Shown piece after piece: positions 33,318 through 48,563 of a stretch of DNA of 64,000 nucleotides. The stretch lies in the NCBI GenBank assembly GCA_046351215.1, contig JAXLYX010000019.1:1-64000 (forward strand), read 5' to 3'. This DNA is from Polyangiales bacterium (lineage in GTDB: Bacteria; Myxococcota_A; Polyangia; Polyangiales; Houyiibacteriaceae). A program made the translations under genes and the position numbers. Each line of letters begins with the position of its first letter. The stretch's first letter is position 1. Below the pieces are notes generated by a model that saw only the letters and a list, made by a program, of their open reading frames with translations, did not search any database and was not told where the DNA came from.

Positions 33318-34397
33318 TCAATGCAGGCTGGCCCCGGCTACGGGCGTCGCGAAGGGGGCGACACCGCGGTCGAAGCCCTGCCGCACGGCACGGACCAGGG
33401 CCGCGTCCGGCTCGGGCCGTGGTGCGAAGGGACGCCGGGACGGAGGCTCGACGAGGACGGCCGCGAGGTGCTCGCCGAGCTCGTAGACGTCGGCCCGGAA
33501 TCGCGCGGGATCGCAGAGCCCGCGGTAGCTGGCCGCGTGGAGCTCGAGCACGAGCTTCGGCAGCTCGCCGTCCGCGAACGCCGCGAGGGCTCGCCGGCCC
33601 AGCTGGGCCACGGTGTCTTCGGGGCGCACGGTGGCGAAGGCGCGGGCGTACGCCGGAGCCACCGCGCCGCTCGAACGCCCGAGGCTGCGCGCGAGGCTCG
33701 CCTCGAAGCCCTGCGCGATCGGCGGCAGGAGCCGGAGGACGAAGCCGGGCTGGAGATAGACCTCGCCCCGGCGGACCTCGTCGACCACGGCGTGGATCGC
33801 GAGGGCGAGGCCGGTCGCCATGCCGGCGCGGTCGTCGTTCGTGGCGCGGAGCTCCTCGGCCAGGGCGACGAGCCGCTCCTCGGCGCGTTCCGCCTCGAGC
33901 CGGAGGGCCGGGAGCCGGGGGGCCTCGTCGAGATCCCGTCGCGGGGGGTACGGGCTCGCCGTCCGCACCTGGGAGGAGAGCTCGACCAGGCGATCCAGGC
34001 TCGACGCGAGCTCGTGGCCGAGGTGCAGACGGGCCGGGAGCGAGAGCAGGGGGCCGCGGAGGTCGACCTCGACCTTCCACTCCACGCGGGTCCGGTTCGG
34101 GCCGAGGGGTCGGAGGACGACCTCCGTGCGATGCCCGCGTATCACACCCGAGCCCACGGCCCGGAACCCGAGGCGCCGCCCCGGCTCCGCATCGACCACC
34201 ACCTCCTCGAGGCTGCCGTGCCGGCCGGGGAGCCCGACGGAGCGGAGGGCGCCGATACCGTTCGGATGCCCGCCGTCCCCCGGCGCGACCGTGCGGATGG
34301 GCGAGGTCGACCAGCGGTTCAAGGCCGACGGGTCGACGAGGAGCCCGAAGGCCACGGCCGGGCTGCAGGCGAGATCGCGATGGAGCTGGAAGAGCAT
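33318..34397 (-). CDS. SRPBCC (START/Bet v1/polyketide-cyclase-like) ligand-binding domain protein with C-terminal helical extension
   Basis: N-terminal about 150 aa 'SPAVAFGLLVDPSALNRWST...RLGFRAVGSGVIRGHRTEVVLRPLGPNRTRVEW' is typical of the SRPBCC fold. Located downstream of squalene monooxygenase. Confidence 0.5.
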   Translation of the reverse strand: MLFQLHRDLACSPAVAFGLLVDPSALNRWSTSPIRTVAPGDGGHPNGIGALRSVGLPGRHGSLEEVVVDAEPGRRLGFRAVGSGVIRGHRTEVVLRPLGPNRTRVEWKVEVDLRGPLLSLPARLHLGHELASSLDRLVELSSQVRTASPYPPRRDLDEAPRLPALRLEAERAEERLVALAEELRATNDDRAGMATGLALAIHAVVDEVRRGEVYLQPGFVLRLLPPIAQGFEASLARSLGRSSGAVAPAYARAFATVRPEDTVAQLGRRALAAFADGELPKLVLELHAASYRGLCDPARFRADVYELGEHLAAVLVEPPSRRPFAPRPEPDAALVRAVRQGFDRGVAPFATPVAGASLH

Positions 34398-34693
34398 CGG
34401 CGACCGAGGTTAGCGCGATCGCGGCCCCTCATCCCGTCCCGACGGCCCGTCGCTCAGCCGCCGAGCTGGCAGAAGGCGTGGACGACGGCGAGGCCGGACG
34501 AGAAGAGGAGGAGGGCCAGCGCGACGCGGGGCATGGGAACCGGGCACTTCTTGGCGCTGGGTTCGACCTGGGGGAGCTCGAGGGCTTCTTGCGTCAGGGT
34601 CATGGCCACCTCGCGACCCAGAGGGTCACGCGCGGAGAACTGGGCCCAGCCGCCCCGATCGGCAAGGGGAGGCTCGGCCGAGGTCCACGAGGG

Positions 34694-36223
34694 TCACGAA
34701 ATTCCGGCCGGGGTGGGGCGCGCCGTGACGCTCCGCTCCACCGGCACCCTGCGTTTCGCCCCGGCCGGCGCGGGAGGAGGGAGGCTCCCTCGGGCCGCGA
34801 CGGCGGCGGCGACCGCGAGAGCGCTCGCCTCGACTTTCTCGGTGGTCAAACGAATCAGGGAGAGGAGGGTGGCGAGCCGGTCGAGGAGCGCCCCCTGCTC
34901 GCGTACGACGGCATAGTACGCGGCGAGGCCGAAGACGCGGACGTACTCCTCGGCGAAGTGGGTGACCGCGACGTCGTCCCCCGAGAGCAGCGCCATGGAA
35001 GCGCGTCGCGCGCGTTCGCTGCGTCGCCAGTAGGCGAAGATCCCCTCGCGCATCGCTCGCGTCGCCGGGGACGCCGCGAGGAAGACCTCGTAGAGCGCGT
35101 CCGTGAGGATCTCGCGCGTCCGCACGAAGGGCGTGCGGGCTTCTTCGTACGCGAGCAGCGCGTCGGCCTGCGTGGGCTCGTCCGCGAGCGCTTCGACCAG
35201 CGCGACGACGTCGTTCGCGCAGACCGTCATGCCGGAGGCCGTGAGCGGATGCGAGCAGCCGGCCGCGTCTCCCACGAGCGCCGCGCCGTCGACCACGGCG
35301 CGCGGCACGCGGATCTTGTGGTTGCCGCAGACCTCGAGCTCGCCCGCGTCGATCGCACGGAGCATGGAGCTCCGCAGCGGCTCCGGCACGACGGGCACGT
35401 AGCGGGCTCGGAGCGTGTCGGCGAGCGCCTTCCGATCCTTGTCGAGCGAGGAGGGGACGTCGATGCACATGCGGACGCGCCCTCCGCCGATCGGATAGGC
35501 GAGCACGGGCCCGGGTGCCCCGAGGAATACGTGGCCGTGTCCCTCGAGGGGGAGCTCGGTGTCCTCGCAGAGCACGGCGACGGTGAACGAGAGCAGCTCG
35601 CTCTTCTCGTCGAGGCCGAGCAGCCCGCGCAGCCGTGAGTGCCTCCCTTCGGCCACGACGACGAGGGGTGCGCGGAGCTCCCGCCCGTCGGCGAGACGCA
35701 CGCCGACGACCCGGCCTCGTTCGCGGAGGACATCGGCGACCTTGGTCCCGAGCTCCATCGACACTCCGTCGAGCGCCGAGACCACGCGGCGCAGGGTCGA
35801 GACCATGTCGCGATGATCCATCGCGATCCCGGTCGCCTCGCCTGTGCCCGAGGCGGGGTACGGAAGCGGCAGCGGGGCCTCGTCCGGTCGCGTCGCGACG
35901 GCGAATCCGACGACGGGCACGCCGCCCGCCCCGAGCATCGGCGCGTGCAGCCCGAGGGACGCGAGCACGCGAGCCCCGCGCGGATGGATCAGCTCGCCGC
36001 GGAAGCGCGGGTCCGGGCCCCTGCGTGCCTCGATCAACGTGACGTTCGTGCCCCGCTTCGCGAGCGCGGCCGCCGCCACGAGTCCCGTGAACCCGCCTCC
36101 GACCACGATCGCCGTGCTCGTCTCCCCACGTCCGCGTCCTTCGTCCGAGCTCGAGAAATCCACGTGCACCTCGCCTTCGTTCGTCGAGAAAAGCGATTGA
36201 AAGGCTACGCACGTCACGGGCAT
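34694..36223 (-). CDS. Squalene monooxygenase (squalene epoxidase)-like FAD-dependent oxygenase
   Basis: 'IVVGGGFTGLVAAAAL' FAD fold, 'GDAAGCSHPLTASGMTVCANDV' (squalene-epoxidase-type GD...HP-L-T-G-G-M-T-V motif). Start taken as the ATG at 36223 ('MPVTCVAF'). The TTG at 36247 or an internal GTG are alternatives. The 748-aa overlapping frame is an artefact. Confidence 0.7.
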   Translation of the reverse strand: MPVTCVAFQSLFSTNEGEVHVDFSSSDEGRGRGETSTAIVVGGGFTGLVAAAALAKRGTNVTLIEARRGPDPRFRGELIHPRGARVLASLGLHAPMLGAGGVPVVGFAVATRPDEAPLPLPYPASGTGEATGIAMDHRDMVSTLRRVVSALDGVSMELGTKVADVLRERGRVVGVRLADGRELRAPLVVVAEGRHSRLRGLLGLDEKSELLSFTVAVLCEDTELPLEGHGHVFLGAPGPVLAYPIGGGRVRMCIDVPSSLDKDRKALADTLRARYVPVVPEPLRSSMLRAIDAGELEVCGNHKIRVPRAVVDGAALVGDAAGCSHPLTASGMTVCANDVVALVEALADEPTQADALLAYEEARTPFVRTREILTDALYEVFLAASPATRAMREGIFAYWRRSERARRASMALLSGDDVAVTHFAEEYVRVFGLAAYYAVVREQGALLDRLATLLSLIRLTTEKVEASALAVAAAVAARGSLPPPAPAGAKRRVPVERSVTARPTPAGIS

Positions 36224-36258
36224 TCGCCACGAGAATCGGTGTAGCAAGCGTTCGCCTC

Positions 36259-36345
36259 GAAACGTGTTCCTCGGCCCTGTCGGACAGGATGAATGTGCAT
36301 CGAAACGTGTTCTCTCGCGCGTCCGGTCGTCCGTGGAACGTGTTC
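36259..36345. promoter_or_regulatory. Three direct copies of GAAACGTGTTC (third copy GGAACGTGTTC) at 36259, 36302 and 36336, in the divergent squalene-monooxygenase / squalene-synthase promoter region
   Basis: Repeats seen directly in sequence, spaced 43 and 34 bp apart, in the 230-bp divergent intergenic region. Candidate transcription-factor binding sites. Confidence 0.35.
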
Positions 36346-36475
36346 ACCGGATCTGCCTCGGAACCGCCCGCCGGATGACACCGGTTCAATCGTGTATCCC
36401 GACGGCTCGCCCGCGTCTTCCGCGGTTCGCCCGAATCCCCGGAGGGGCGTCTTGAAGACGGGCTCGCGGCGGACG

Positions 36476-37417
36476 ATGAGAGGGGCGCTCGCAACGAGAG
36501 GGGAACCCGTGGCCGACCTCGACCAGCTCCTGAAAGAGACCAGCCGTACCTTCGCGCTCGCCATCCCGCTCCTTCCGGAGCCGTACCGGCGCGAGGTGAC
36601 GATCGCGTACCTGCTCTTCCGGATCGCCGACACCTTCGAGGACGCGACCCACTGGGCGCGCGAAGAGCGGATCGCGGCCCTCGAGCGCTTCGTCGAGCTC
36701 CTGCGCGCCCGCGATCGCGACGGGCTCGTGGCCGCCACGAAGCAGTGGCTCGAGCGGAGCCCCAGCGACCACGCGGGCTACCTCGAGCTCCTCGCGGAGA
36801 CGCCCGCGGTCTACGACGCCCTCGAGGCGGTCCGCTCCGAGGCGCGCGTCGCGATCGTGCACCACACGGCACGCACCGCCCTCGGCATGGCGGACGTCGT
36901 CCGCAGGGCCGATGCGCGCGGCTCGCTCGCCCTCGACGATCTCGAGGACCTCCGCCACTACTGCTACCTCGTGGCCGGCATCGTGGGCGAGCTGCTCACC
37001 GATCTCTTCGTCATCCCGCCGAGCCCGGCGGCTCGCGTCTCGCGCATCCTCCGGGAGCACGACGTCGCGTTCGGCGAGGGGCTGCAGCTCGTGAACATCC
37101 TCAAGGACGCCGACGACGACGCGAAGGAAGGCAGGACGTACCTGCCCGCCGGGGTCGCCCGGAGCGAGGTGCTCGGGCTCGCTCGCGCCGACCTCGAGCG
37201 CGCCCGTCTCTACGTCCTCGCCCTGCAGGCGGCGAAGGCCGAGCCTGGCGTCGTCGCCTTCACCGCGCTCCCGGTCCTCCTCGCCCGCGCGACCCTCGAC
37301 AAGTTGGAGGTCGAAGGACCCGGAGCGAAGATCCCGAGGTCCGAGGTCGTCGAGCTGCTCTTCGGGCTGCAGGGGGCGTTGTCGCGGGGAGAAGAGGCGA
37401 TACCCCTCAAGAACTGA
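36476..37417 (+). CDS. Squalene synthase (trans-isoprenyl diphosphate synthase, head-to-head; eukaryotic-type)
   Basis: 'LLKETSRTFALAIPLLPEPYRREVTIAYLLFRIADTFED' (domains I/II, close to the eukaryotic 'SRSFAAVI...YLVLRALDTVEDD'), 'YCYLVAGIVGELLT' and 'GEGLQLVNILKDADDDAKEGRTYLP'. Start ATG at 36476. The ORF-track frame opens at 36293, but that N-terminus is Pro/Arg-rich. Confidence 0.8.
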   Translation: MRGALATRGEPVADLDQLLKETSRTFALAIPLLPEPYRREVTIAYLLFRIADTFEDATHWAREERIAALERFVELLRARDRDGLVAATKQWLERSPSDHAGYLELLAETPAVYDALEAVRSEARVAIVHHTARTALGMADVVRRADARGSLALDDLEDLRHYCYLVAGIVGELLTDLFVIPPSPAARVSRILREHDVAFGEGLQLVNILKDADDDAKEGRTYLPAGVARSEVLGLARADLERARLYVLALQAAKAEPGVVAFTALPVLLARATLDKLEVEGPGAKIPRSEVVELLFGLQGALSRGEEAIPLKN

Positions 37418-37425
37418 GGGAAGAG

Positions 37426-37548
37426 ACGTGCACGTGCACGATCCTCGTTCACGTGCACGGGCCGTCGTGCACGTGCACGTGCACGGTTCGCGTGCACGTG
37501 GACGGTTCGCGTGCGCGTGCACGATTTGCGTGGACGTGCACGCATCTC
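37426..37548. repeat. Dense tandem array of GTGCACG / CACGTG units: (CGTGCA)n followed by about three imperfect 19-bp units of the type GTTCGCGTGCACGTGGACG
   Basis: Directly visible: 'gacgtgcacgtgcacg...cacgtgcacgg...cgtgcacgtgcacgtgcacggttcgcgtgcacgtggacggttcgcgtgcgcgtgcacgatttgcgtggacgtgcacg'. Lies between the squalene synthase stop and the start of the GST-fusion gene. Confidence 0.6.
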
Positions 37549-37567
37549 GGGGTGCTAGCGTCGAGCG

Positions 37568-38572
37568 ATGTCCTCCCTCGAGCTCCTGATCGCGAACAAG
37601 AACGTCTCCTCCTGGTCGCTGAGGGCGTACCTCGCGCTCTCCGTGGCAGGGATTCCCTTCCGGGAGACGAGGATCCCCGAGCACCTCGACGAGTCGCGGA
37701 AGTGGCTCGACGCGAAGAGCCCGTCGGGGAAGGTGCCCGTGCTGATCGACGGGGACCTCGTGATCCACGAGTCGCTCGCGATCCTCGAGTACCTCGCCGA
37801 GCTCTTCCCCGAGAAGAAGCTCTGGCCGGAGGATCGGAAGGCACGAGCCTGGGCGCGGGCGATCGCCTCCGAGATGCACGGGGGCTTCGGCGAGCTCCGG
37901 CGGAACCTGACGATGAATCTCGCGCGGCGCGAGGTCCGGGGGGAGCTCGATCCGGGCACGCAGCGCGAGGTCGATCGGATCGGGGAGATCGTCCGCGAGA
38001 CGCGTGCGAGGTTCGGCGAGGGCGGTCCGTTCCTCTTCGGCGCCTTCACGAACGCGGACGCGATGTTCGCTCCCGTCGCGTGCCGGTTCCGGACCTACGG
38101 CCTCCCGCTCGATCCCGTCACGAAGGCGTGGTGCGAGGCGATCTACGAGCTGCCGGCGCTCCGGCGGTGGGAGGCGGACGCGCTCCGCGAGGCCGAGACC
38201 GAGCCGATGATCCTCGGCGTCGGTCAGCGCGTGGACGTGCGGCCGGCCGACTACGAGCATCCGCGTCCTTCGTGGGCCGTGATCTTCGCGTCGAAGCTGA
38301 GGCAGGGGGACCCCGACTACGCCGGAGTCGCGGCGCGCATGGTCGAGCTCGCGAAGTCGTCTCCGGGCTGCCTCGGGATGGAGAGCGCGCGTGGCCCCGA
38401 CGGTCTCGGGATCACGGTCTGCTACTGGTCCTCGCCCGAGGCGATCGCCGCGTTTCGGGCGGACCTCGAGCACGCCGAGGCGCAGCGCAAGGGACGCGAG
38501 CGGTTCTACGAGGGCTTCCACCTCGTCGTGGCACGCGTGGACCGCGAGTCGCGCTTCGGAAGCCTCGCCTGA
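37568..38572 (+). CDS. Glutathione S-transferase fused to a C-terminal ABM (antibiotic-biosynthesis-monooxygenase / Dabb-like) domain
   Basis: GST N-domain 'SSWSLRAYLAL...GKVPVLIDGDLVIHESLAILEYL'. C-terminal about 100 aa 'GCLGMESARGPDGLGITVCYWSSPEAIAAFRADLEHAEAQRKGRERFYEGFHLVVARV' is ABM-like. Confidence 0.65.
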   Translation: MSSLELLIANKNVSSWSLRAYLALSVAGIPFRETRIPEHLDESRKWLDAKSPSGKVPVLIDGDLVIHESLAILEYLAELFPEKKLWPEDRKARAWARAIASEMHGGFGELRRNLTMNLARREVRGELDPGTQREVDRIGEIVRETRARFGEGGPFLFGAFTNADAMFAPVACRFRTYGLPLDPVTKAWCEAIYELPALRRWEADALREAETEPMILGVGQRVDVRPADYEHPRPSWAVIFASKLRQGDPDYAGVAARMVELAKSSPGCLGMESARGPDGLGITVCYWSSPEAIAAFRADLEHAEAQRKGRERFYEGFHLVVARVDRESRFGSLA

Positions 38573-38636: not shown

Positions 38637-40742
38637 ATGCCCAGGGAAGCCCGTTCGAAGCAGGAGAAGGAGCTCGAGACCCTCGCCGAGGAGATCCGGT
38701 ACCACGAGGCCGCGTACCGTCGCGGCGAGCCCGAGATCCCGGACGGAGCCTTCGACGACCTCGTCGATCGCTACGAGCAGCTCGCCGAGTCGCTCGGGGT
38801 GCCACTCGCGCAGCGGGTCACGGCGAGGCCGGGCGCCGAGCACACGGAGGGCTTCGAGCAGGTCGCGCACCGCGTGCCGATGCTCTCGCTCGAGAAGCTC
38901 ACGCCGAGCAAGAAGGACGGGAGCGGGGGCTCCCTCGGGCTGCGCGAGCAGCTCCTGCAATGGGTGACGAGGCGGCGCAAGGACCTCGAGCTCGCGGCGC
39001 ACGGACGGCTCGAGCTCTGCGTCGAGCCGAAGATCGACGGGATCTCGATGTCCCTCCTCTACCAGGACGGGAAGCTCGTCCGCGCCGTCACGCGCGGCGA
39101 CGGAGAGAAGGGCGACGTGATCACGGCCCAGGTGCGGGCCGCCCGCGCCGTCCCCGAGCGTCTCGAGGGCACGAGCCGCGGCGAGGTCGAGATCCGTGGC
39201 GAGCTCTACTTCCCGCTCGACGCCTTCCACCGCCACAACGAGGCGCTCGCGGCACGCGGCGAGAAGACGCTCGTGAATCCCCGCAACGGCTGCGCGGGGC
39301 TCATGAAGCGTAAGGATCCCTCGGGGCTCGAGGGGATCGGCATCCGCTCGTTCCTCTACCAGGTCCCCTGGGCCCAGGGAGTCCATCTGCCCCCGACCCA
39401 GCACGCGACGCTCGAATGGCTCCGCGCGCACGGAGGCGACGTCTACCTCGACCTCGTGCACGTGACCGACGACGTGGACGCCGCGCTGGCGTTCTGCGAG
39501 GGCTTCGCCGAGAAGCGCGGCACCCTGCCCTACGACATCGACGGGATGGTCCTGAAGGTCGACGAGCTCAAGCACTACGGCGCGCTCGGCATGACCGGAC
39601 ACCATCCGCACTGGGGCGTCGCCTACAAGTTCCCGCCCGAGCGGAAGGCGACGAAGCTCGAGGACATCGTCGTGCAGGTCGGGAAGTCGGGGAAGCTCAC
39701 GCCGGTCGCCGTGCTCGAGCCGGTCTTCGTCGCCGGCACGACCGTGAGCCGCGCCTCGCTGCACAATTTCGTCGAGCTCGCGCGCAAGGACGTGCGCGTC
39801 GGCGATCGCGTCTTCGTCGAGAAGGCCGGCGAGATCATCCCCCAGGTCGTCGGCGTCGACCTCGAGGCGCGGCCCCACGGGACGCACGAATTCCATCCGC
39901 CCACGAAGTGCCCGACCTGCGGGACGCCCGTCGTCGCCGAGGACATCTTCGTCTACTGCCCGAACCCCGCCTGCCCCGATCAGGTGCGTGAGCGTCTCGT
40001 CCACTTCGCGAGCCGGCATGCGATGGACATCGACGGGCTCGGCGAGGCGGTCGTGAACCTCCTCGTCGACGAGCTCGGCGTGCGCTCGCCCGACGACATC
40101 TACCGGCTCGACGCGGCGAAGGTCGCGGAGCTCCCGCGCATGGGGAAGAAGAGCGCAGCCAACCTGATGCGCGCGATCGAGACGTCGAAGTCGAGGGGTC
40201 TCGCGCGCGTCCTCGTCGCCCTGGCCATCCGCCACGTCGGCGAGACGATGGCGGAGGAGCTCGCACGCTACTTCGGCTCGATGGTCGCGCTCCTCGAGAT
40301 GGCGCATCGATACGACTCCGGGGACGCCGAGGCGGTGCGTCTCTTCGCGCCCGAGAAGTCGGGAGAGCGCGGAGCCATCGAGGGGCTCGCGAAGAAGAGC
40401 GCCGACAGCATCTTCCGCGAGCTCTCGTCCCCGCAGGTCCGTCGCGTCATCGCGGGCCTCGCCGAGGCGGGCCTCGTGATGACGGCGGAGAAGCGCTCGG
40501 TGGTCGCCGTCGAAGGGGTGGCGGGCAAGGCCTTCGTCCTCACGGGCACGCTGCCCACGCTGAAGCGCGACGAGGCCGCCGCGAAGATCAAGCAAGCGGG
40601 CGGCAAGGTCTCCGGCTCGGTGTCGAAGAAGACGAGCTACGTCGTCGTCGGCGCCGAGGCCGGCAGCAAGCTCGCCGACGCCGAGGCGCTGGGAATCCCG
40701 ACGATCGACGAGGCCGAGCTCCTCCGCATGTTGGGGGAGTGA
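38637..40742 (+). CDS. ligA: NAD-dependent DNA ligase
   Basis: Adenylation 'EPKIDGISMSLLY' (KxDG), 'CPTCGTPVV...CPNPACP' Zn finger, HhH and C-terminal BRCT ('FVLTGTLPTLKRDEAAAKIKQAGGKVSGSVSKKTSYVVVG'). Confidence 0.9.
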   Translation: MPREARSKQEKELETLAEEIRYHEAAYRRGEPEIPDGAFDDLVDRYEQLAESLGVPLAQRVTARPGAEHTEGFEQVAHRVPMLSLEKLTPSKKDGSGGSLGLREQLLQWVTRRRKDLELAAHGRLELCVEPKIDGISMSLLYQDGKLVRAVTRGDGEKGDVITAQVRAARAVPERLEGTSRGEVEIRGELYFPLDAFHRHNEALAARGEKTLVNPRNGCAGLMKRKDPSGLEGIGIRSFLYQVPWAQGVHLPPTQHATLEWLRAHGGDVYLDLVHVTDDVDAALAFCEGFAEKRGTLPYDIDGMVLKVDELKHYGALGMTGHHPHWGVAYKFPPERKATKLEDIVVQVGKSGKLTPVAVLEPVFVAGTTVSRASLHNFVELARKDVRVGDRVFVEKAGEIIPQVVGVDLEARPHGTHEFHPPTKCPTCGTPVVAEDIFVYCPNPACPDQVRERLVHFASRHAMDIDGLGEAVVNLLVDELGVRSPDDIYRLDAAKVAELPRMGKKSAANLMRAIETSKSRGLARVLVALAIRHVGETMAEELARYFGSMVALLEMAHRYDSGDAEAVRLFAPEKSGERGAIEGLAKKSADSIFRELSSPQVRRVIAGLAEAGLVMTAEKRSVVAVEGVAGKAFVLTGTLPTLKRDEAAAKIKQAGGKVSGSVSKKTSYVVVGAEAGSKLADAEALGIPTIDEAELLRMLGE

Positions 40743-40849: not shown

Positions 40850-41659
40850 ATGCGCCCCCTCCTCGCCGTCGTCCTCGCCTTCCTCTTCCTCGCCGTCCAC
40901 GCCTACGCCCAGGTCCCTCCCACGACCACGGATCCCCGGGCCGTGATGGAAGCCTCGTACCGTCTCGACGCGGGCGATCGCCTGGTCGCCCGCGTCCGGA
41001 TGACGATCACCGACGCGCAGGGCCGTGCCCGCGTTCGCGAGGTCGTGCTCCGCGCGATGGAGTTCCAGGGCGGTCGCAAGACGCTCATGCTCTTCGAGAG
41101 CCCGGCGGACGTCCGCAACACGGGGCTGCTCTCGATCGACCACGACGAAGGCTCCCGGCGCGACGAGCAATGGCTCTACCTCCCGAGCCTGCATCGCGCG
41201 ACGCGCATCGCGGCCTCGCGTCGCTCCGGCTCCTTCGTCGGCTCCGACTTCAGCTTCGCGGATCTCACGGCGGCCGATCCCGACGAGTACGAGCTGCGCA
41301 TGGTGCAGGCGGACGTCGCGGTGAACGGCGAGCCCTGCTGGCGCATCGAGGCCACGCCGCGCACGCCCGCCATCCGCGAGGAGACGGGCTACGAGAAGAT
41401 CGAGGTCTGGATCTCGAAGCGCAGCCTGCTGGCGATCCGGACGAAGGCGACGATGGGGCAGGGGAGGGCGAAGTACGTCGCGCTCGAGGACGTGCGCCGC
41501 GTCGACGGCATCTGGACCGCGCATCGGGTCGTCGCCCGCACCGTCCGCAACGACCAGCTCGAATCGCAGACGGTGCTCGAACGCCGCGACGTGCGGTACG
41601 GTGATGCGACCGTGACCGAAGCCGACTTCACCGTGCAGCGCCTCGAGCGGGGACTCTAG
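40850..41659 (+). CDS. Secreted LolA-like / outer-membrane-lipoprotein-sorting-family protein
   Basis: Signal peptide 'MRPLLAVVLAFLFLAVHAYA'. Size (269 aa) and pattern are typical of small LolA-fold proteins encoded beside MMPL/RND exporters. Family assignment by recall only. Confidence 0.5.
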   Translation: MRPLLAVVLAFLFLAVHAYAQVPPTTTDPRAVMEASYRLDAGDRLVARVRMTITDAQGRARVREVVLRAMEFQGGRKTLMLFESPADVRNTGLLSIDHDEGSRRDEQWLYLPSLHRATRIAASRRSGSFVGSDFSFADLTAADPDEYELRMVQADVAVNGEPCWRIEATPRTPAIREETGYEKIEVWISKRSLLAIRTKATMGQGRAKYVALEDVRRVDGIWTAHRVVARTVRNDQLESQTVLERRDVRYGDATVTEADFTVQRLERGL

Positions 41660-41664
41660 CGTCC

Positions 41665-43170
41665 ATGCGCCTCGGTGCGCTCCTCCCCCCGCTGCTCGTC
41701 GCGGCGTGCTTCGTGTCGTCCGCCGCTCGCGCGCAGACGGTGGAGAGCGCGAGCGATGCCGTCGGCTGGGGCGAGAGCGCGTCCGACGAGAGCGCGGGCG
41801 ATGCGGTCGGCTGGGGCGGGGGCGAGGCCACGACCGCCGAGTCGCCTTCCGAGCCCGTCGACGAGGCTTCCGCGGAGCGTGCGACCTCCGTCGGAGGCAC
41901 GGTCCGCGGCGACGGCGCGATGTGGACCGAGCGTCTCGGCGACAACGGCTTCGCGAAGGCGCGATTCTCCTACGATCTCTGGCTCCGCCATCGGCTGCGG
42001 CGAGGTCGGCTCGTCCTCGGGCTGCACGGCGAGCAGGACTTCGCCTACCTCTACGAGCCCGAGACCTACGATCAGCCGACGATCGACGTCTACGGGTCGG
42101 TGATCCGTGCGGGGGAGAGCTACCTCGCGCTCGAGACCGCGAACGCCGAGCTCGCGATCGGCACGCAGGTCGTCAATTGGGGCCACGGCGAGATGCTCTC
42201 GGTCGTCGATCTCGTGAATCCGCGCGACATGCGCGAGCCCGGCTTGATGGACCCGATGGACGTGCGCATCCCGGCCCTGATGAGCCGAGGCTCGTGGACG
42301 AACGGCCGCACGCGGCTCGAATTCCTCTGGCTCCACGAGGCCTACTTCCGCCTGCGCCCGCCGCCCTTCGGGACGTGGAGCCTCGTCCGCACGGCCGTGC
42401 TCACGGATCCGACCATCGCGATGACGCCGTTCCCTTCCTACGTCGACACCCGCGACGTCTACTGGCAGCAGAGCCCGCGACGCGTGTCGGTGGAGAGTCA
42501 GCAGGTGTTCGCGCGGGTGACACGGACGCTCGGACCGGTCGACCTCGGCTTCTACGCGGCCGACTACCTCGACCCGATCGGCACGGCGACGTTGCCCGAG
42601 GCGAGCGCCTGGGCGAACGCGGCCGTGTACGTGCCCCTCGACCATCTGCGCACGAACACGATCGGCGCCTCCGTCTCGTTCGTGCACCGGGATCTCTCGG
42701 GCTGGCTCGAGGTCGGCTGCGACATCCGGCGCCCGGTGAACACGGTGGATTTCGCCACGTTCGGCATCGGCACGGAGCGGCGCACGCTCTTCCGCTGGAC
42801 GCTCGGCGTCCGCTACCAGGGGCTCCGCGACACGACGATCGCCCTCGAATACGGGCAGGGAACGCAGCAGGGGCCCGGCGGGAGCGACTACCCGCTGCTC
42901 GTGCCGATCTTCCCCGCGACGCTCGCCGCGCGCGTCGAACGGAGCTTCGCACGGGAGCGATTGCGCGCGATGATCGTGGCCGCGCTCAACGGCGAGCACT
43001 TGGCGGGAGGTGGCTTCGCGCGCGCGCAGCTCGCCTACGTGCCGATCGACGGACTGACTCTCTCGATCGGCTACGCGATCTACTTCCCGACCGACACACC
43101 GTCCCTCGTCTGGGGCTTCACGACGAACGATCGCTTGATGGTCGGAGTCCGTTACGATTTCGCTCGTTGA
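41665..43170 (+). CDS. Secreted protein, probable outer-membrane beta-barrel (DUF1302-like?)
   Basis: Signal peptide 'MRLGALLPPLLVAACFVSSAARAQ'. Alternating beta-strand-like composition. The C-terminus 'GVRYDFAR' lacks a terminal Phe, so the barrel call is tentative. Confidence 0.45.
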   Translation: MRLGALLPPLLVAACFVSSAARAQTVESASDAVGWGESASDESAGDAVGWGGGEATTAESPSEPVDEASAERATSVGGTVRGDGAMWTERLGDNGFAKARFSYDLWLRHRLRRGRLVLGLHGEQDFAYLYEPETYDQPTIDVYGSVIRAGESYLALETANAELAIGTQVVNWGHGEMLSVVDLVNPRDMREPGLMDPMDVRIPALMSRGSWTNGRTRLEFLWLHEAYFRLRPPPFGTWSLVRTAVLTDPTIAMTPFPSYVDTRDVYWQQSPRRVSVESQQVFARVTRTLGPVDLGFYAADYLDPIGTATLPEASAWANAAVYVPLDHLRTNTIGASVSFVHRDLSGWLEVGCDIRRPVNTVDFATFGIGTERRTLFRWTLGVRYQGLRDTTIALEYGQGTQQGPGGSDYPLLVPIFPATLAARVERSFARERLRAMIVAALNGEHLAGGGFARAQLAYVPIDGLTLSIGYAIYFPTDTPSLVWGFTTNDRLMVGVRYDFAR

Positions 43171-43281
43171 CCTTGCTTTCCCGACTCCGGCCACTTGTCC
43201 GGATGTAGGTATGGCTCCTACGTGGTGGCACGAGCCGAGCCGACGCGGCTCCTCGCGTGGAACGCACGGGAAAGGAATTCC

Positions 43282-43569
43282 ATGACCGGCAGCCCCATCC
43301 ATCCGACGGACGACGGCCTCGCGGTCGAATGGCTGATGTCGCTCCTCGCTTCCACCGGGGACATCTACGTCCGTCCCATCGCCGGCGGTCCGACGATGGA
43401 GACGTCGCTGCGCGAGGAGCTCGGGCTCGACTCCATCGGGATGGTGGGCGTCTTCTACGCGGTGGTCGACGAGCTCGGTCTCGACGCCGACGAGCGCGTC
43501 GTGGCGGACTGGCGCACGGTCGCCGACGTGGTGCGCTTCGCACGGAGCGGAGCCGAAGGAGCGGCATGA
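43282..43569 (+). CDS. Acyl carrier protein
   Basis: 'LGLDSIGMVGV' phosphopantetheine-attachment (DSx) motif, 95 aa, strong Shine-Dalgarno GGGAAAGGAA. Stop overlaps the next gene (ATGA). Confidence 0.75.
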   Translation: MTGSPIHPTDDGLAVEWLMSLLASTGDIYVRPIAGGPTMETSLREELGLDSIGMVGVFYAVVDELGLDADERVVADWRTVADVVRFARSGAEGAA

Positions 43570-44981
43570 CGAACGCGCCTCCGTGGAAGACGGTCGCGCT
43601 CGATCCCGATGGACGTCGGCGCAGCGAGCCGATCCTCGCAGGGCTCCCCGAGGTGCCTCCGCTCTCGGTCGTCGTGCTCGCCGTCGCCGATCCCGCGTTC
43701 CTGGTGGCGGGCTACGAAGCGGTGCTCGCCCGGGAGGCGATCCCGCTGCTCCTGCACGGCACCACGCCGCTCGCGCTCGCGCGGCGGATGGTCGAGCGGG
43801 TCGGCGCCGCGGCCCTCCTGCATGCGCCCCTCGAGGGGGATCCCCACGTCGAGACCGCCCCGGCGGGAAAGGCCCGACTGCCGGAGCGCGGACATCTGCT
43901 CTGCACGAGCGGCACGACGAGCAAGTCGGGCGAGCCGAAGGTCTACTTCTTCCCCGAGGCCCGGGCCGAGGCGAACGCCCGCGCGCATCTCGCTTCCCTC
44001 GGCCTCGCCGACGCGCGCGGTCTCCGCATCCTCCTGCCGCTGCCCGTGAGCCACGCGTTCGGTCTCGTCTGCGGACATCTCGCGGCGCGGGCGACGGGCT
44101 CGACGCTCCTCGCGTTCACGAGCACGCCCGATCCCGCGACGTTGCTCGAGGTCGCGGCGCGCGAGCAAGCCCAGGTGCTCCACCTGACCCCGCCCATGGT
44201 GCGACTGCTCGCGCGGCGTCACGCGCGCAGAGCCGCCCCCGCGCTGCCCGAGCTCTCGCTCGTCGGCGTGGGCTCGGCGCCGAGCACGGCGGGCGAGATA
44301 CGAACGCTCCACCGGCTCTTCCCCGCGTCGCGCATCGTCGCGACGTACGGGCTCACGGAATGCGGACCCCGCGTGGCGACGTTCCAGGCCGGGACCGCCG
44401 AGCATCCCTCGATGCTCCTCGACGTCGACGACGCCGCGCAGGTGCCCCTCGGCGAGCCGCTCGCGGGCGTCCGGCTCGCGCTCGAGGACACAGGCTCCGA
44501 TGGCGTCGGAGAGCTCGTCGTGCACACGCCTTACGTCGCCACCGGACGCCTCGTCGACGGCGCGCTCGAGCCCATGCCCGCCGGTCCCTTCCGGACGCGA
44601 GACGCCGCGCGTCGCGAGGCCTACGGCGGGATCACCCTCCTCGGTCGCATGGACGGAACCATCGTCCGAGGCGGGACCAACGTGTATCCGACGAACGTCG
44701 AGCCGCTCGTCGAGGACGTGGCAGGCGTCACCGGCGTCTGCCTCGTCGGTCAGCGCTCCCCGACCTACGGAGAGGTCCCCGTGCTCGTCTGCGAGGTCGC
44801 GGCCGGGACGCACGAAGAAGAGCTCCGTCGGTCGATCGAGGCGCGGCTCGCCGACGAGCTCCCGCCGACCGATCGCCCCGTCGAGATCCGCTTCGTGCGC
44901 ACGCTGCCGCGCACCTCGCTCGGCAAGGTGATCCGCGCCGAGGTGAAGTCCAGGCTGGAGGCCCCGCATGGCTCTTGGTGA
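43566..44981 (+). CDS. AMP-dependent synthetase/ligase (adenylate-forming enzyme, short form)
   Basis: 'LLCTSGTTSKSGEPK' (AMP-binding motif I), 'ATYGLTECG', 'GELVVHTPYVATG', 'TRDAARREAYGGITLLGRMD' (motif with hinge Asp), 'SLGKV' terminal Lys. Confidence 0.75.
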   Translation: MTNAPPWKTVALDPDGRRRSEPILAGLPEVPPLSVVVLAVADPAFLVAGYEAVLAREAIPLLLHGTTPLALARRMVERVGAAALLHAPLEGDPHVETAPAGKARLPERGHLLCTSGTTSKSGEPKVYFFPEARAEANARAHLASLGLADARGLRILLPLPVSHAFGLVCGHLAARATGSTLLAFTSTPDPATLLEVAAREQAQVLHLTPPMVRLLARRHARRAAPALPELSLVGVGSAPSTAGEIRTLHRLFPASRIVATYGLTECGPRVATFQAGTAEHPSMLLDVDDAAQVPLGEPLAGVRLALEDTGSDGVGELVVHTPYVATGRLVDGALEPMPAGPFRTRDAARREAYGGITLLGRMDGTIVRGGTNVYPTNVEPLVEDVAGVTGVCLVGQRSPTYGEVPVLVCEVAAGTHEEELRRSIEARLADELPPTDRPVEIRFVRTLPRTSLGKVIRAEVKSRLEAPHGSW

Positions 44982-45999
44982 TCGGCACGCCTCGCTCGGC
45001 GGGAAGGGCGTCGCGATCCGCGGCATCGCCCATCGCCTCGGCTCGCGGAAGGTGACGAACCAGGACATCATCGACGAGCATCGCATCCGCCTGAAGGACG
45101 CGTGGGTGCGCGAGAACATCGGCATCTCCGAGCGCCATTGGGTCGGGCCGCACGAGTCGACCGCGACGATGGCGGCGGAGGTCTGCGCCGAGCTCGTCGG
45201 GAACGCGGGGCTCGCGCCGGCGGCAGTCGATCGCCTGATCGTGGCGACCGTCTCTCCCGAGGTGATCACGCCCTCGACCGCCTGCATCACGCAGTCGATC
45301 TTCGCGCCGGGCACGGCCTTCCCCTGCATGGATCTCGTCGCCGCCTGCGGAGGCTTCCTCTACGCGCTCGACGTCGGCAGGCGCTGCGTACAGACGGGCG
45401 ATCGGAACGTCCTCGTCGTCGCCTCGGAGGTGCGGAGCGCCTTCCTCGACAAGCAGGATCGGCGCACGGTGATGCTCTTCGGCGACGGCGCCGCGGGCGT
45501 GCTCCTCACGCCGGCCCGAGAGGGCGAGGTCGGCATCGTCGACACCCGCCTCTTCGCGGACGGTCGCTTCTGGGAGGCGATCTCGGTGCCGGCAGGCGGC
45601 GTGCGGCGGCCTGCGTCCGCGGAGACGGTCGCGGAGAAGGCCCACTCGATCACGATGAAGGACGGAGCCGCGATCTTCGAGCGAGCCGTCGCCGAGATGA
45701 CGGAGCTCGTGAAGGCGATGGTGCTCGGCCACGGCGCCACGCTCGACGAGGTCGACTTCTTCGTCTTCCACCAGGCCAGCGTGAACATCGTGAGGCGCGT
45801 GCTCGAGGCCCTCGGGATCCCCGAGGAGAAGACCTGGATCAACTTCCCCCGCGTCGGGAACTGCACCGCCGCTTCCGTGCCGATCGCGCTCTCCGAGGCC
45901 GTGCGCGCAGGTCGGGTGAAGCGGGGCGATCTCGTGTGCTCCGTCGCGACCGGAGGTGGGTTCACCGCCGGGACGGCGCTCTTCCGCTGGGAGGTCTGA
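44968..45999 (+). CDS. FabH-like 3-oxoacyl-ACP synthase III / OleA-like thiolase-fold condensing enzyme
   Basis: Cys-His-Asn triad contexts 'MDLVAACGGFLYAL', 'FVFHQASVNI', 'RVGNCTAASVPIAL'. 343 aa. Confidence 0.85.
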   Translation: MALGDRHASLGGKGVAIRGIAHRLGSRKVTNQDIIDEHRIRLKDAWVRENIGISERHWVGPHESTATMAAEVCAELVGNAGLAPAAVDRLIVATVSPEVITPSTACITQSIFAPGTAFPCMDLVAACGGFLYALDVGRRCVQTGDRNVLVVASEVRSAFLDKQDRRTVMLFGDGAAGVLLTPAREGEVGIVDTRLFADGRFWEAISVPAGGVRRPASAETVAEKAHSITMKDGAAIFERAVAEMTELVKAMVLGHGATLDEVDFFVFHQASVNIVRRVLEALGIPEEKTWINFPRVGNCTAASVPIALSEAVRAGRVKRGDLVCSVATGGGFTAGTALFRWEV

Positions 46000-46000
46000 C

Positions 46001-46828
46001 ATGAAGGGAACGCGACGCATCGAGGACTGTCGGGTGTGGGTGACGGGCGGGCGCCGCGGTCTCGGATACGCGTTCGCCGCGCATTTCGCCTCGCTCGGAG
46101 CCGAGGTCCACATCACCTCCCGCGAGCCGGGGAGCGCGGCCGCCGTCGAGGCCGTCGACTCCCTCGCCCACGCGGCGCGCGCCCACGCGGTCGGCCACGG
46201 CACGCAGGCGAAGCCCGTCACGGTCCACGGCCTCGACATGGCCGATCCCGCGAGCCTCGACGCGCTCTCGGACGCGATCCGCCACCATCCGCCGCACGTC
46301 CTCGTCCACGCGGCCCACGTCTTCGCCGACCACGTGCCGATCGTCGGTCGGAAGCCGGAGGACTTCGCCCGAGGTCTCTCGTCGAACGTCGTCTCCGCCT
46401 ACACGATCCTCCGCTCCGCGGCGCGCGCCATGGCGCGCGAGGGGCTCGGACGCATCCTCGTCGTGGGCAGCTTCGCGACGGTGAAGCCGGGCCTCGGACA
46501 GGTCGGCTACGTGACGGAGAAGGCGGCGCTCGAGGGCATGGTCCGCTCCTTCGCCGCGGAGTTCGCGGCGCGCGGCGTCCACGTGAACGTCGTGCATCCG
46601 GGCATCTGCGACACCGAGAACGTCCGCGACCGCGTGCCCGAGGTGATCCGCGACGCGTACGCCGCACGGACCAGCGCCGGGAGGCTGCTCTCGCCGAAGG
46701 AGGTCGTGCTCGCGTCGTTCTCGCTGTGCGATCCCCGGCACGCCGGGATCACGGGCCAGTCGCTCGCGATCACGGGCGGCGCCGATCTCGCGGGCCTCGT
46801 GGCCGGCACCTCGGGGGCGGAGACGTGA
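46001..46828 (+). CDS. Short-chain dehydrogenase/reductase (SDR), ketoreductase-like
   Basis: 'VWVTGGRRGLGYAFA' dinucleotide fold, 'YVTEKAALEGM' (YxxxK), 'VHPGICDT'. GGGAGG Shine-Dalgarno sequence, 1-nt gap after the KAS III stop. Confidence 0.8.
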   Translation: MKGTRRIEDCRVWVTGGRRGLGYAFAAHFASLGAEVHITSREPGSAAAVEAVDSLAHAARAHAVGHGTQAKPVTVHGLDMADPASLDALSDAIRHHPPHVLVHAAHVFADHVPIVGRKPEDFARGLSSNVVSAYTILRSAARAMAREGLGRILVVGSFATVKPGLGQVGYVTEKAALEGMVRSFAAEFAARGVHVNVVHPGICDTENVRDRVPEVIRDAYAARTSAGRLLSPKEVVLASFSLCDPRHAGITGQSLAITGGADLAGLVAGTSGAET

Positions 46829-47637
46829 GCACGCGCGGCGCGATCGTCCGCTCCATCGTGCTCTTGCCCCCGCTCGGCCACGACGCGGCGCTCTACGCGC
46901 CGCTCGCGCGCGCGATCGGCGATCGGCTCGAGGTCGTCGCGCTCGACTATCCCGGCTTCGGCGAGGAGCCACAGGGCTTCGACTACGAGGCTCCCGAGCT
47001 CCTCGAACGGCTCGCCGGGCACTTCGCCCAACGCATCGACTCGCTCGGGATCGAGCCGGTCTTCCTCGGCGGCGTCTCGCTCGGCGGCACGCTCTCCTTC
47101 CCCCTGGGCTCGAGGCTCGCGCGAGCGCCCGAGGGAAGGCTCCTCCTCGCGTCGGGAGGTCTTCCCGTGGCGATGGTCCGGAAGGACGCCGTGCGCACGG
47201 CGATGAACGAGCTCGGCGCCGTCGGCTTCGCGCGCAGGCACCTCGGGCTCGACCATCCGGACCTCGACGCGTCGAGCCTGCGGACCCACATCGGTCGCAT
47301 GACGGAAGACGTCGCGCGCTACTTCGAGCACTACTTCCACACGACGTGGGAGGGTCCGGCGTTCGAAGCCCGCGCGAACGCCTCCGTCGCGATGCTGAGA
47401 GCCGCCCTCGACGTCGACTTCCGCGAGGCGATGCGCGATCCACGCCCCCGTTCGGTGGTGATCTGGGGCGACCGCGATCGGATCTTCTCGCGATCGTTCG
47501 TCGACCGTCTCGTCGCGACGCTCGCACGCCCTTCGCTCCACGTCCTCGACGGCGTGGGGCACTACCCCCCGCTCGAGGCTCCCGACGAGGTCGCACGGAT
47601 CGTCGTCGAGGCCCTAGAAGGAAAGGCAGAAGCATGA
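46825..47637 (+). CDS. Alpha/beta-hydrolase fold protein (thioesterase/OleB-like?)
   Basis: 'FLGGVSLGG' nucleophile elbow (GxSxG), C-terminal 'LDGVGHYPPLE' His. GTGA overlap with the SDR gene. Confidence 0.7.
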   Translation: MSTRGAIVRSIVLLPPLGHDAALYAPLARAIGDRLEVVALDYPGFGEEPQGFDYEAPELLERLAGHFAQRIDSLGIEPVFLGGVSLGGTLSFPLGSRLARAPEGRLLLASGGLPVAMVRKDAVRTAMNELGAVGFARRHLGLDHPDLDASSLRTHIGRMTEDVARYFEHYFHTTWEGPAFEARANASVAMLRAALDVDFREAMRDPRPRSVVIWGDRDRIFSRSFVDRLVATLARPSLHVLDGVGHYPPLEAPDEVARIVVEALEGKAEA

Positions 47638-48326
47638 CCGACCACAGCAGCCATCCCGTGATCGCCCGGTTCGATCGCGTCCTCGAGGAGGCGGTCGGCC
47701 GGATCGAGGACAGTCCCTTCGTGAAGGACCTCGCCGCCGGCAAGCGCGTGCTCCCCCTCTACGAGGCCTATCTGCGCGAGGCGTACCATTTCGTGCGCCT
47801 GACCTCGTCGTTCACGCCGCTCGCGGCGCGGCGCATGGATCCGGAGCTCCTCGGCCTCCGCCAGTGGATCCTCCACCACTCGGCCCACGAGATGGGTCAC
47901 GAGCTGATGGCGCTCCAGGACCTCGAGCTCCTCGGCCAGTCGCGCGAGTCGGTGAAGGCGAGCCAGCCGCGCCCCGGCACCTGGCAGTGGGTCCACTTCT
48001 TCTACTACCAGGTCGTCGAGCGTCCGCCGTTCGCCGCCATGGGCGTCCTCTACTTCCTCGAGGGGATGGCCGCGAAGCTCGCGCCCATCGTCGTGCAGCA
48101 GGTGCTGCCCTCGCTCGAGGGCGAGAAGAAGCGGGCGACGCTCTTCGTGCGCGAGCACGGCGAGCTCGACCTCGAGCACACGGACGAGCAGAAGGACGTG
48201 CTCGTGAAGTACTGCACGAATCCGTTCGACCAGGACGTCGTCTGCGAGACGATCCTGCAGGCCAGCTACGCCAAGCGCGCGATGATCGATCACATCGCCG
48301 AGACCGTGGGGAACCGAGCGCCATGA
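47634..48326 (+). CDS. Heme-oxygenase-like fold protein (TenA/PqqC/CADD-type; candidate HO-like non-heme di-iron oxidase)
   Basis: 230 aa, all-helical composition with carboxylate/His pairs 'HHSAHEMGHE', 'YFLEGMAAK', 'VREHGELDLEHTDE'. ATGA overlap on both sides. Family call is pattern-based and tentative. Confidence 0.5.
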   Translation: MTDHSSHPVIARFDRVLEEAVGRIEDSPFVKDLAAGKRVLPLYEAYLREAYHFVRLTSSFTPLAARRMDPELLGLRQWILHHSAHEMGHELMALQDLELLGQSRESVKASQPRPGTWQWVHFFYYQVVERPPFAAMGVLYFLEGMAAKLAPIVVQQVLPSLEGEKKRATLFVREHGELDLEHTDEQKDVLVKYCTNPFDQDVVCETILQASYAKRAMIDHIAETVGNRAP

Positions 48327-48559
48327 CCGTCACCGAATCCGACCTCAAGAAGATGATCTCGGCGATCTGCCGCGTGCCCGAGGAACGCATCGCGCGCGAG
48401 ACGCGCTTCGTCGCCGACCTCCACATGGACTCGCTCGCGAGCCTCGATCTCCTCACGGAGCTCGAGGAGGTCCACGGCGTCGTGATCACGCAGGAGGAGG
48501 CACGCCACCTCCAGACCTTCGGTCACCTGCTCGATTTCCTCGAGAAGCGCGAAGACTGA
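48323..48559 (+). CDS. Acyl carrier protein (second copy)
   Basis: 'ADLHMDSLASLDLLTELEE' DSL motif, 78 aa. ATGA overlap with the upstream gene. Confidence 0.75.
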   Translation: MTVTESDLKKMISAICRVPEERIARETRFVADLHMDSLASLDLLTELEEVHGVVITQEEARHLQTFGHLLDFLEKRED

Positions 48560-48563
48560 GCCC

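Follow-up and report, generated by a model that had tools for sequence, protein, structure and literature searches.

The locus

The stretch of DNA analysed here (the window, 64,000 nt) belongs to an NCBI 'Polyangiales bacterium' metagenome-assembled genome (MAG), and exact look-ups matched its proteins to MFO0696301-08 of that MAG. A squalene/phytoene synthase family gene (SQS) is followed in the window by a GST-family gene, and the intergenic stretch between them (37418-37567; SQS stop codon 37415-37417, GST ATG at 37568) holds a dense array of short palindromes containing GTGCAC and CACGTG. The distance from the SQS stop codon to the array is 9 nt, and that from the array to the GST start is 25 nt. 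The sequence itself, Tandem Repeats Finder and shuffle counts agree that it is real. The original prediction had placed it between the squalene synthase stop and a GST-ABM fusion gene; the position was right, but the ABM domain, seen in homologues of the GST protein, has no match at E < 0.001 in this copy.

Architecture of the array

The array consists of five 14-bp palindromes of the CGTGCACGTGCACG type, perfect or near-perfect, and one central 20-mer, (CGTGCA)3CG. All six blocks are built on the hexamer CGTGCA (Table 1). They are separated by spacers of 5-6 nt, in order ATCCT, GGCCGT, GTTCG, GTTCG and ATTTG, and the unit starts are mostly 19-20 bp apart, with 25 bp across the 20-mer. Tandem Repeats Finder reported a period of 6 at 37426-37542 (18.5 copies, 67% matches), a period of 19 at 37472-37542 (3.7 copies, 86%) and a period of 25 at 37446-37523. 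The repeats had first been described as a hexamer run followed by three 19-bp units. The repeats themselves are confirmed, but the layout is different, with a periodicity of mostly 19 bp spanning the whole array.

Matches to CGTGCACGTGCACG with no more than one mismatch start at 37427, 37446, 37466, 37472, 37491, 37510 and 37529. With up to two mismatches allowed, the window holds 14 matches compared with 0.66 expected from shuffles, and none of 100 shuffles reached 14. For the octamer CGTGCACG, 15 copies were counted in the window (2.05 expected), nine of these inside the array. The seven CGTGCACGTGCACG matches outside the array are isolated singles; those at 39455, 53307 and 53376 were read and all lie in coding DNA, and we attribute the unread remainder to codon usage. 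The array is the strongest inverted repeat and the sole cluster of this kind in the 64 kb. Its 20-mer is the longest alternating pyrimidine-purine run in the window, the hexamer CGTGCA being perfectly alternating.

Further copies in the same genome

Metagenome contigs were scanned for a perfect unit with CGTGNNCGTG 5-6 nt behind it, a distance at which coding repeats in hexamer phase are left out. The scan returned 102 loci (numbered, like all contigs here, with the letter L). Multi-unit arrays like that of the window were present on five contigs of metagenome WBZQ01, namely L145, L159, L184, L219 and L242. Proteins flanking three of them connect these contigs to the MAG. The hydrolase of L145 is exactly MFO0694354.1 (locus tag U0230_12410, on a 457-kb MAG contig), the phosphoenolpyruvate (PEP) synthase of L242 is exactly MFO0695202.1 (274-kb contig), and the SDR protein of L184 falls into the same 90% cluster as MFO0691921.1 (723-kb contig). 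L159 and L219 come from the same metagenome and have an architecture in common with the window array. The total for the species is six arrays or more, spread over four or more contigs with unrelated genes as neighbours, and the species is present in at least one activated-sludge assembly (ERZ937806/DRR046817). The window contains one array, with none further in about 55 kb of flanking sequence.

A genome-specific repeat family had been among the options first proposed, and this one is borne out by homologous arrays on at least three other contigs of the MAG. It had also been stated that dispersal of the repeat over hundreds of loci without gene association, as in a generic REP-like element (REP, repetitive extragenic palindrome), would speak against a specific role at this site. 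Dispersal of that kind is what was found, although at no fewer than six copies rather than at hundreds of loci.

The copies resemble each other beyond their hexamer content. The window array and that of L145 are 90% identical across 91 nt (BLAST), and their spacers agree at 15 of 20 positions (p about 4e-6). Each of the six arrays has exactly one central 20-mer with two partner units: the left one has a pyrimidine at position 4 (Y4; CGTYCACGTGCACG) and the right one a purine at position 11 (R11; CGTGCACGTGRACG). The most economical master form would be a central (CGTGCA)3CG with CGTCCACGTGCACG on the left and its exact reverse complement CGTGCACGTGGACG on the right, together with 8- or 14-bp units of the CGTGCACG type at 19-20-bp spacing. 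With C4 in the left partner of this ancestor and G11 in the right one, the flanking units would be exact reverse complements of each other, their own internal symmetry being lost. The relevant symmetry therefore lies between units around the 20-mer and not within single units, where a dimeric protein would require it.

The arrays are 98-221 bp long, varying with the number of internal units. In L219 there are three tandem 39-bp blocks, and spacers inside arrays are near-duplicates. At four loci, the arrays are identical in independent assemblies or samples.

Position relative to genes

All six arrays of the species lie outside the open reading frames (ORFs) supported by G+C content at the third codon position, and they start 7-14 nt past a stop codon. 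The genes on either side are convergent in L145, L184 and L242, and there the array takes up the gap between them, ending 5-17 nt before the opposite stop. Among the metagenome loci with a unit pair, 39 had a G+C content that permitted gene calls and could be classified by orientation. The flanking genes were in tandem at 24, convergent at 13 and divergent at two of these loci; two or fewer divergent loci have a probability of 0.0013 under an expectation of 25%. The 107 flanking ORFs matched 110 Pfam families, none of them more than three times. The orientation counts and the Pfam scan thus indicate that the elements track the 3' ends of genes and avoid divergent promoter regions, without association with any particular gene.

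Filled and empty sites in a sister lineage

The protein clusters at 90% identity that contain SQS and the L145 hydrolase led to a sister lineage. Its flanking genes have 87-92% nucleotide identity to those of the window species, and the gene order is kept. At the L145 locus, also represented by L245, the filled site has a 140-nt array directly after the TGA stop codon. The corresponding site in the sister (L257) reads TGA-GAGGCC-TCA, a gap of 6 nt between convergent stops that holds no seed unit. The SQS-GST spacer is 73 nt in the sister compared with 150 nt in the window, and it contains a single ACGTGCACGT where the window array begins. This stretch (37426-37435, the start of unit 1) is the sole part of the array also present in the sister lineage, and no array was found in about 33 kb of sister-lineage contigs. 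Homologues of the GST protein offered no further comparison, as none was found between 51% and 99% identity and those at 50% are not syntenic.

Since arrays are absent from both sister sites, the copies represent a recent lineage-specific gain and not a conserved regulatory feature of the flanking genes. Precise loss in the sister at both sites would be a less economical explanation. The pair of filled and empty sites gives direct evidence of recent gain relative to a sister at about 90% identity. The window species and its sister lineage are thereby a ready system for studying cluster spread, 3'-end formation and local supercoiling.

Predicted folding

Every unit is self-complementary, and therefore any two units can pair. 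The plus-strand RNA of the window array folds with a minimum free energy (MFE) of -90.6 kcal/mol (z = -5.3), and the DNA fold has an MFE of -56.9 kcal/mol (z = -6.2). The predicted RNA pairing is nested, unit 1 with unit 5 (one G.U pair), unit 2 with unit 4 (a T4.G11 wobble) and the 20-mer with itself. Across the six arrays, z ranges from -3 to -8 on both strands. In the window the plus strand folds 15.7 kcal/mol better than the minus strand, while in the other arrays the strands differ by at most 7 kcal/mol, in either direction. A G.U signature of the transcript strand was considered and discarded: the other arrays show no consistent strand, and the polarity of the unit variants does not follow the orientation deduced from the spacers. 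Judging by their unit sequences, the copies behave like a decaying repeat population and not like a conserved structured RNA.

Interpretation as an extragenic palindromic cluster

The array is probably an inserted copy of a lineage-specific, multi-copy extragenic palindromic cluster in a Polyangiales (Myxococcota) genome. In general kind it resembles the REP clusters and bacterial interspersed mosaic elements (BIMEs) of E. coli, Xanthomonas and Stenotrophomonas and the tandem REP doublets forming hairpins (REPINs) of Pseudomonas fluorescens. Like these, the clusters are short, G+C-rich, extragenic and palindromic, occur in multiple copies and form regularly spaced composites. They likewise sit just past stop codons and between convergent genes, are not tied to particular genes and vary from one close lineage to the next. 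Up to five REPINs in tandem, as well as BIME-2 arrays, have been described (PMC2817692, PMC3337134).

How such copies arise and act can be proposed in outline. Some copy-and-insert process would have made the copies, and slippage at the 6-, 19- and 39-bp periodicities may have caused their later growth or shrinkage. The roles reported for REPs and BIMEs include binding of gyrase, Pol I and IHF, Rho-dependent termination, and structured mRNA that is a target of RNase R and PNPase. By analogy, the array as single-stranded DNA or RNA might fold into nested, long, G+C-rich hairpins. In the transcript, these hairpins could protect or define the SQS 3' end as a block to exonucleases, and they might damp read-through or insulate SQS from GST-ligA. 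As DNA, such arrays could extrude cruciforms or adopt Z-DNA in response to supercoiling where transcription units converge, and might attract gyrase.

Several points weigh against this assignment. The number of copies demonstrated is at least six, four of them tied to the MAG through protein matches, and the density is about one array per 60-120 kb in the stretches scanned; REP copy number is usually above 100 per genome (PMC2817692). No transposase, RAYT (REP-associated tyrosine transposase) or other, was identified, the genome not having been scanned as a whole. The Pfam list for the 107 flanking ORFs, which names 25 families and omits most of those with a single match, has no Y1 transposase family. 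Comparison of the filled L245 site with the empty L257 site showed no target-site duplication, and at the window's own site the array could have grown in situ from a seed of the sister type. The 59 distinct pairs of the form unit-N5-unit gave no compensatory signal (at deviating positions 86 mismatch, 11 G.T and 2 Watson-Crick), and covariation therefore lends no support to a selected hairpin, the single ancestral C4:G11 flip being the exception. A terminator scan had no match at the array, where there is no T tract and the sequence past the last unit is CATCTCGGGG; that the array is not a canonical intrinsic terminator had been correctly anticipated. Lastly, the consensus CGTGCACGTGCACG lacks the GT(A/G)G head of REPs.

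The departures from known REPs extend further. GTGG was found only in the R11 variant (..CGTGGACG), at its 3'-distal end. Units are perfect 14-bp palindromes made from the CGTGCA hexamer and have no unpaired loop. The regular spacing of BIMEs is shared, but the symmetric units have no defined orientation, and only Y4 and R11 are inverted about the 20-mer. The host here is a myxobacterium with a copy count of at least six, whereas a RAYT/REP survey found no homologues outside the Proteobacteria examined (PMC2817692). With the GT(A/G)G head absent, no RAYT identified and a demonstrated copy number of at least six, the cluster is best described as a REP-like variant, and membership of the RAYT-REP system is not claimed for it. 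What is known of REP- and REPIN-type elements comes mainly from Proteobacteria such as Gammaproteobacteria, and the present cluster is a structurally different one in a myxobacterial lineage. A literature search on REP elements in myxobacteria found nothing relevant, and as far as our searches found, extragenic palindrome clusters of such structure in Myxococcota are undescribed.

Miniature inverted-repeat transposable elements (MITEs) are also small non-coding insertions with overall inverted symmetry, and they too are present or absent between close lineages, as at the 6-nt empty site. In contrast to MITEs, the arrays lack both a target-site duplication and terminal inverted repeats that could be told apart from the internal units. 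CRISPR arrays likewise have regularly spaced palindromic repeats parted by spacers, with repeats of roughly 23-55 bp and spacers of 21-72 bp. Here the units are 14 bp and the spacers 5-6 bp, and the spacers are related to one another, in agreement with the original prediction that this is not a CRISPR array. A further intergenic multi-copy repeat, the Mx-rep of Myxococcus xanthus, was reportedly described by Fujitani et al. in 1991; it is said to have an 87-bp core without the CGTGCA structure and is mentioned as a lead only.

Alternative explanations

A local micro- or minisatellite would have grown in place by slippage from a single ACGTGCACGT seed and would form a hypermutable contingency locus. 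This reading accounts for the sister's ACGTGCACGT exactly at the array start, the near-duplicate adjacent spacers (GTTCG/GTTCG/ATTTG) and the 39-bp blocks of L219, and the self-complementary hexamer is prone to slippage. Nevertheless, the order of unit variants and the spacers are common to other loci, to the extent of the identity with L145 given above, a pattern that independent local growth would not produce. The empty L145 site is without any seed, and the arrays that are identical across independent samples at four loci are not visibly hypervariable. On balance, in-place growth appears quite improbable as the origin of the array. A hypervariable variable-number tandem repeat or contingency locus was discarded as an identity on similar grounds, the sole difference seen being presence or absence between lineages.

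A dimeric transcription factor might instead bind the 14-bp palindromes cooperatively and so control GST-ligA or SQS. Such a gene-specific operator would fit the perfect or near-perfect palindromy of the units, a 19-bp spacing near two helical turns and the short distance from the array end to the GST start. Moreover, unrelated contigs with a G+C content of 55% have a palindrome pair just past a TTGACA-type promoter-like hexamer, upstream of a conserved gene. An operator array would be expected at the promoters of a coherent set of genes and to be conserved at orthologous sites, but in the same genome arrays occur between convergent stops, where there is no promoter, divergent intergenic regions are avoided and the orthologous SQS-GST spacer of the syntenic sister has no array. 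No sigma-70-like promoter was found at the array, no regulator gene adjoins it and the flanking genes have no function in common. In the Y4 and R11 variants the unit itself is no longer palindromic, but complementarity between units is kept. A dedicated operator of SQS or GST is not supported, and we consider it very unlikely. The initial proposal of a regulatory array or insulator tied to these two genes is not supported, in view of the convergent-stop copies, the sister spacer and the unrelated flanking functions. In annotation, the array should accordingly not be read as a regulatory site of squalene- or sterol-type lipid genes or of ligA.

The direct repeats of about 19-20 bp have the spacing of plasmid iterons, palindrome arrays resemble some centromeres, and CACGTG is the core of canonical parS. 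A replication or partition element, with plasmid-type iterons or a centromere-like array of the parS or sopC type, is nevertheless scarcely credible. The neighbours are ordinary chromosomal genes, with no Rep, ParA/ParB or DnaA among those scanned around the array; there is no A+T-rich stretch (G+C 0.63-0.65); copies lie on four different large contigs; and the pattern had no match in 2.9 million viral contigs.

An assembly artefact or chimeric join at a low-complexity repeat might be suspected from Logan k=31 contigs that stop inside the array (at 37471 and around 37493) and from an NCBI protein annotated as partial beside another array, but its probability is next to nil, since SQS and GST are linked by the identical full array in the MAG as well as in two independent ENA assemblies (L002 and L133), and Logan and ENA contigs of different samples run across other arrays.

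Other identities were also tried and rejected. The absence of viral-contig matches disposes of a phage origin. Against Rfam 15, only sub-threshold, chance matches to miRNA hairpins were obtained (best 31.8 bits compared with a gathering score of 67) and the arrays of 20 related loci gave nothing, so the array was not assigned to a known RNA family. A His-rich coding peptide was rejected as well: the three forward frames give no consistent product, and the periods (about 19 and 25 bp) are not divisible by 3 and shift the frame. A search of the literature with the exact sequences returned only eukaryotic E-box and G-box papers.

Palindromes with the same unit in other taxa

Most of the 102 loci have the form GAT-CGTGCACGTGCACG-TGNCA-CGTGCACGTGCACG-ATC, palindromes of 33-39 bp, with the loop TGNCA in 28 of the 59 distinct pairs. 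These GAT/ATC hairpins occur on two contigs of a Thermoflexales MAG (L087:4600-4640 and L094:73-110), and many copies are found in the single metagenome Ga0182021. They have the identical 14-mer, the 19-bp unit spacing, the multiple copies and the location after gene 3' ends in common with the window array. They differ from it in having two units, a TGNCA centre, GAT/ATC flanks and no 20-mer, and in belonging to other taxa.

It is conceivable, if rather doubtful, that a previously undescribed, cross-phylum superfamily of mobile extragenic palindromes with CGTGCACGTGCACG as building block extends over Polyangiales, Thermoflexales (Chloroflexota) and many G+C-rich soil bacteria. It might be spread by an unrecognised enzyme rather than a classical GTAG-recognising RAYT. 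Alternatively, it might be kept by a widely conserved host protein that binds Z-DNA- or cruciform-prone sequence, for example where transcription induces supercoiling between convergent genes.

GAT/ATC hairpins are common in G+C-rich soil contigs among L143-L244 (for example L209:2095-2216, L222:372-466 and L183:387-486). Two inverted hairpins often lie inside an element of about 200 bp whose flanks (CTAG..CACTCAC..GGACGTTTCG) are inverted repeats too, and these elements look like a REPIN- or MITE-like family. Seven soil contigs with a G+C content of 55% (L164, L167, L179, L192, L195, L212 and L234) have a conserved TTGACA-N17-..GAT-CGTGCACGTACACG-ATTAC-CGTGCACGTGCACG arrangement. In L195 (11990-12075), about 60 nt separate this segment from a downstream ORF whose start resembles a signal peptide. 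The unit pair is there placed at a promoter-like position or in a 5' untranslated region, unlike the copies at 3' ends. From its first residues, we would guess the ORF to be TonB-receptor-like.

Other hexamer-phased self-complementary runs (GACGTT, GAACCC, CGAGTA, GAGCAC/GTGCTC) form long intergenic palindromes in G+C-rich metagenome contigs, at L228:1000-1340, L202:745-800 and L217:1302-1490 and in L165 and L240. Palindromes built from hexamers may be more general than the CGTGCA type. A pattern scan of genome contigs gave, among the matches listed, mostly chance, coding or hexamer-phase occurrences, and none of those listed came from the source MAG. Inside genes the CGTGCA motif forms His-rich coding repeats (CAC GTG CAC = His-Val-His), as at L047:4300-4560, L022:6831-6860 and L032:1955-1985, and hexamer pattern searches therefore collect coding microsatellites. 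The repeat in L047, from a Sandaracinaceae MAG, lies upstream of a HypB-like N-terminal sequence.

Gene neighbourhood and minor observations

Table 1. Positions of the array, its blocks and the adjoining features in the window.
Feature	Position	Strand	Remarks
Squalene/phytoene synthase family gene (Pfam SQS_PSY; MFO0696302.1)	36509..37417	+	alternative start 36293
Whole palindromic repeat cluster	37427..37542	.	6 blocks, unit starts 19-25 bp apart (mostly 19)
Unit 1, CGTGCACGTGCACG	37427..37440	.	perfect 14-bp palindrome
Unit 2, CGTTCACGTGCACG	37446..37459	.	'Y4' left partner of the central 20-mer
Central 20-mer, (CGTGCA)3CG = CGTGCACGTGCACGTGCACG	37466..37485	.	symmetry centre, once per family array
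Unit 4, CGTGCACGTGGACG	37491..37504	.	'R11' right partner of the 20-mer
Unit 5, CGTGCGCGTGCACG	37510..37523	.	
Unit 6, CGTGGACGTGCACG	37529..37542	.	
CTAG between array and GST start	37554..37557	.	DDE_3 transposase element inserted in sample L133; outside the repeat family
GST-family gene (GST_N)	37568..38572	+	downstream of array
ligA	38637-40742		follows GST gene

The array is surrounded by chromosomal genes of ordinary kinds, among them those for a squalene-epoxidase-like monooxygenase, an SRPBCC protein, PEP carboxylase, sensor kinases, an RND/MMPL transporter and fatty-acid-type enzymes. In the stretch 33318-37417, the SQS-family gene is divergent from a FAD monooxygenase with a squalene-epoxidase domain, and a 49-aa ORF and an SRPBCC (Polyketide_cyc2) protein are also encoded. 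Genes for LolA-like TP_0789, DUF1302, acyl carrier protein, acyl-AMP ligase, KAS III and SDR proteins lie at 40850-51140, together with one for an RND/MMPL protein that has a sterol-sensing-domain match. The two stretches could represent a cluster for synthesis and transport of the sterol or hopanoid type.

The DDE_3 transposase element at the CTAG (L133:1200-1652, ENA ERZ27268175) was seen in one sample and is probably IS630-like. Contig L006, from another sample, begins exactly at this junction. As ligA lies downstream of this insertion, its expression probably does not depend solely on read-through from SQS.

The array breaks short-read assemblies, and Logan contigs end within it. In many samples, the Logan k=31 contigs break at nearly fixed positions, 37471 and about 37480-37495 (L001, L003-L005, L007-L009, L130-L137 and L142), and each 31-mer of the array occurs in it just once. 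The breaks might be due to k-mers common to other arrays or to a drop in coverage at hairpins.

At the L145 locus, the hydrolase gene beside the array has a tRNA gene (L145:1626-1699, minus strand; Rfam RF00005, 63.9 bits) just upstream of it, with no evident link between the tRNA gene and the array.

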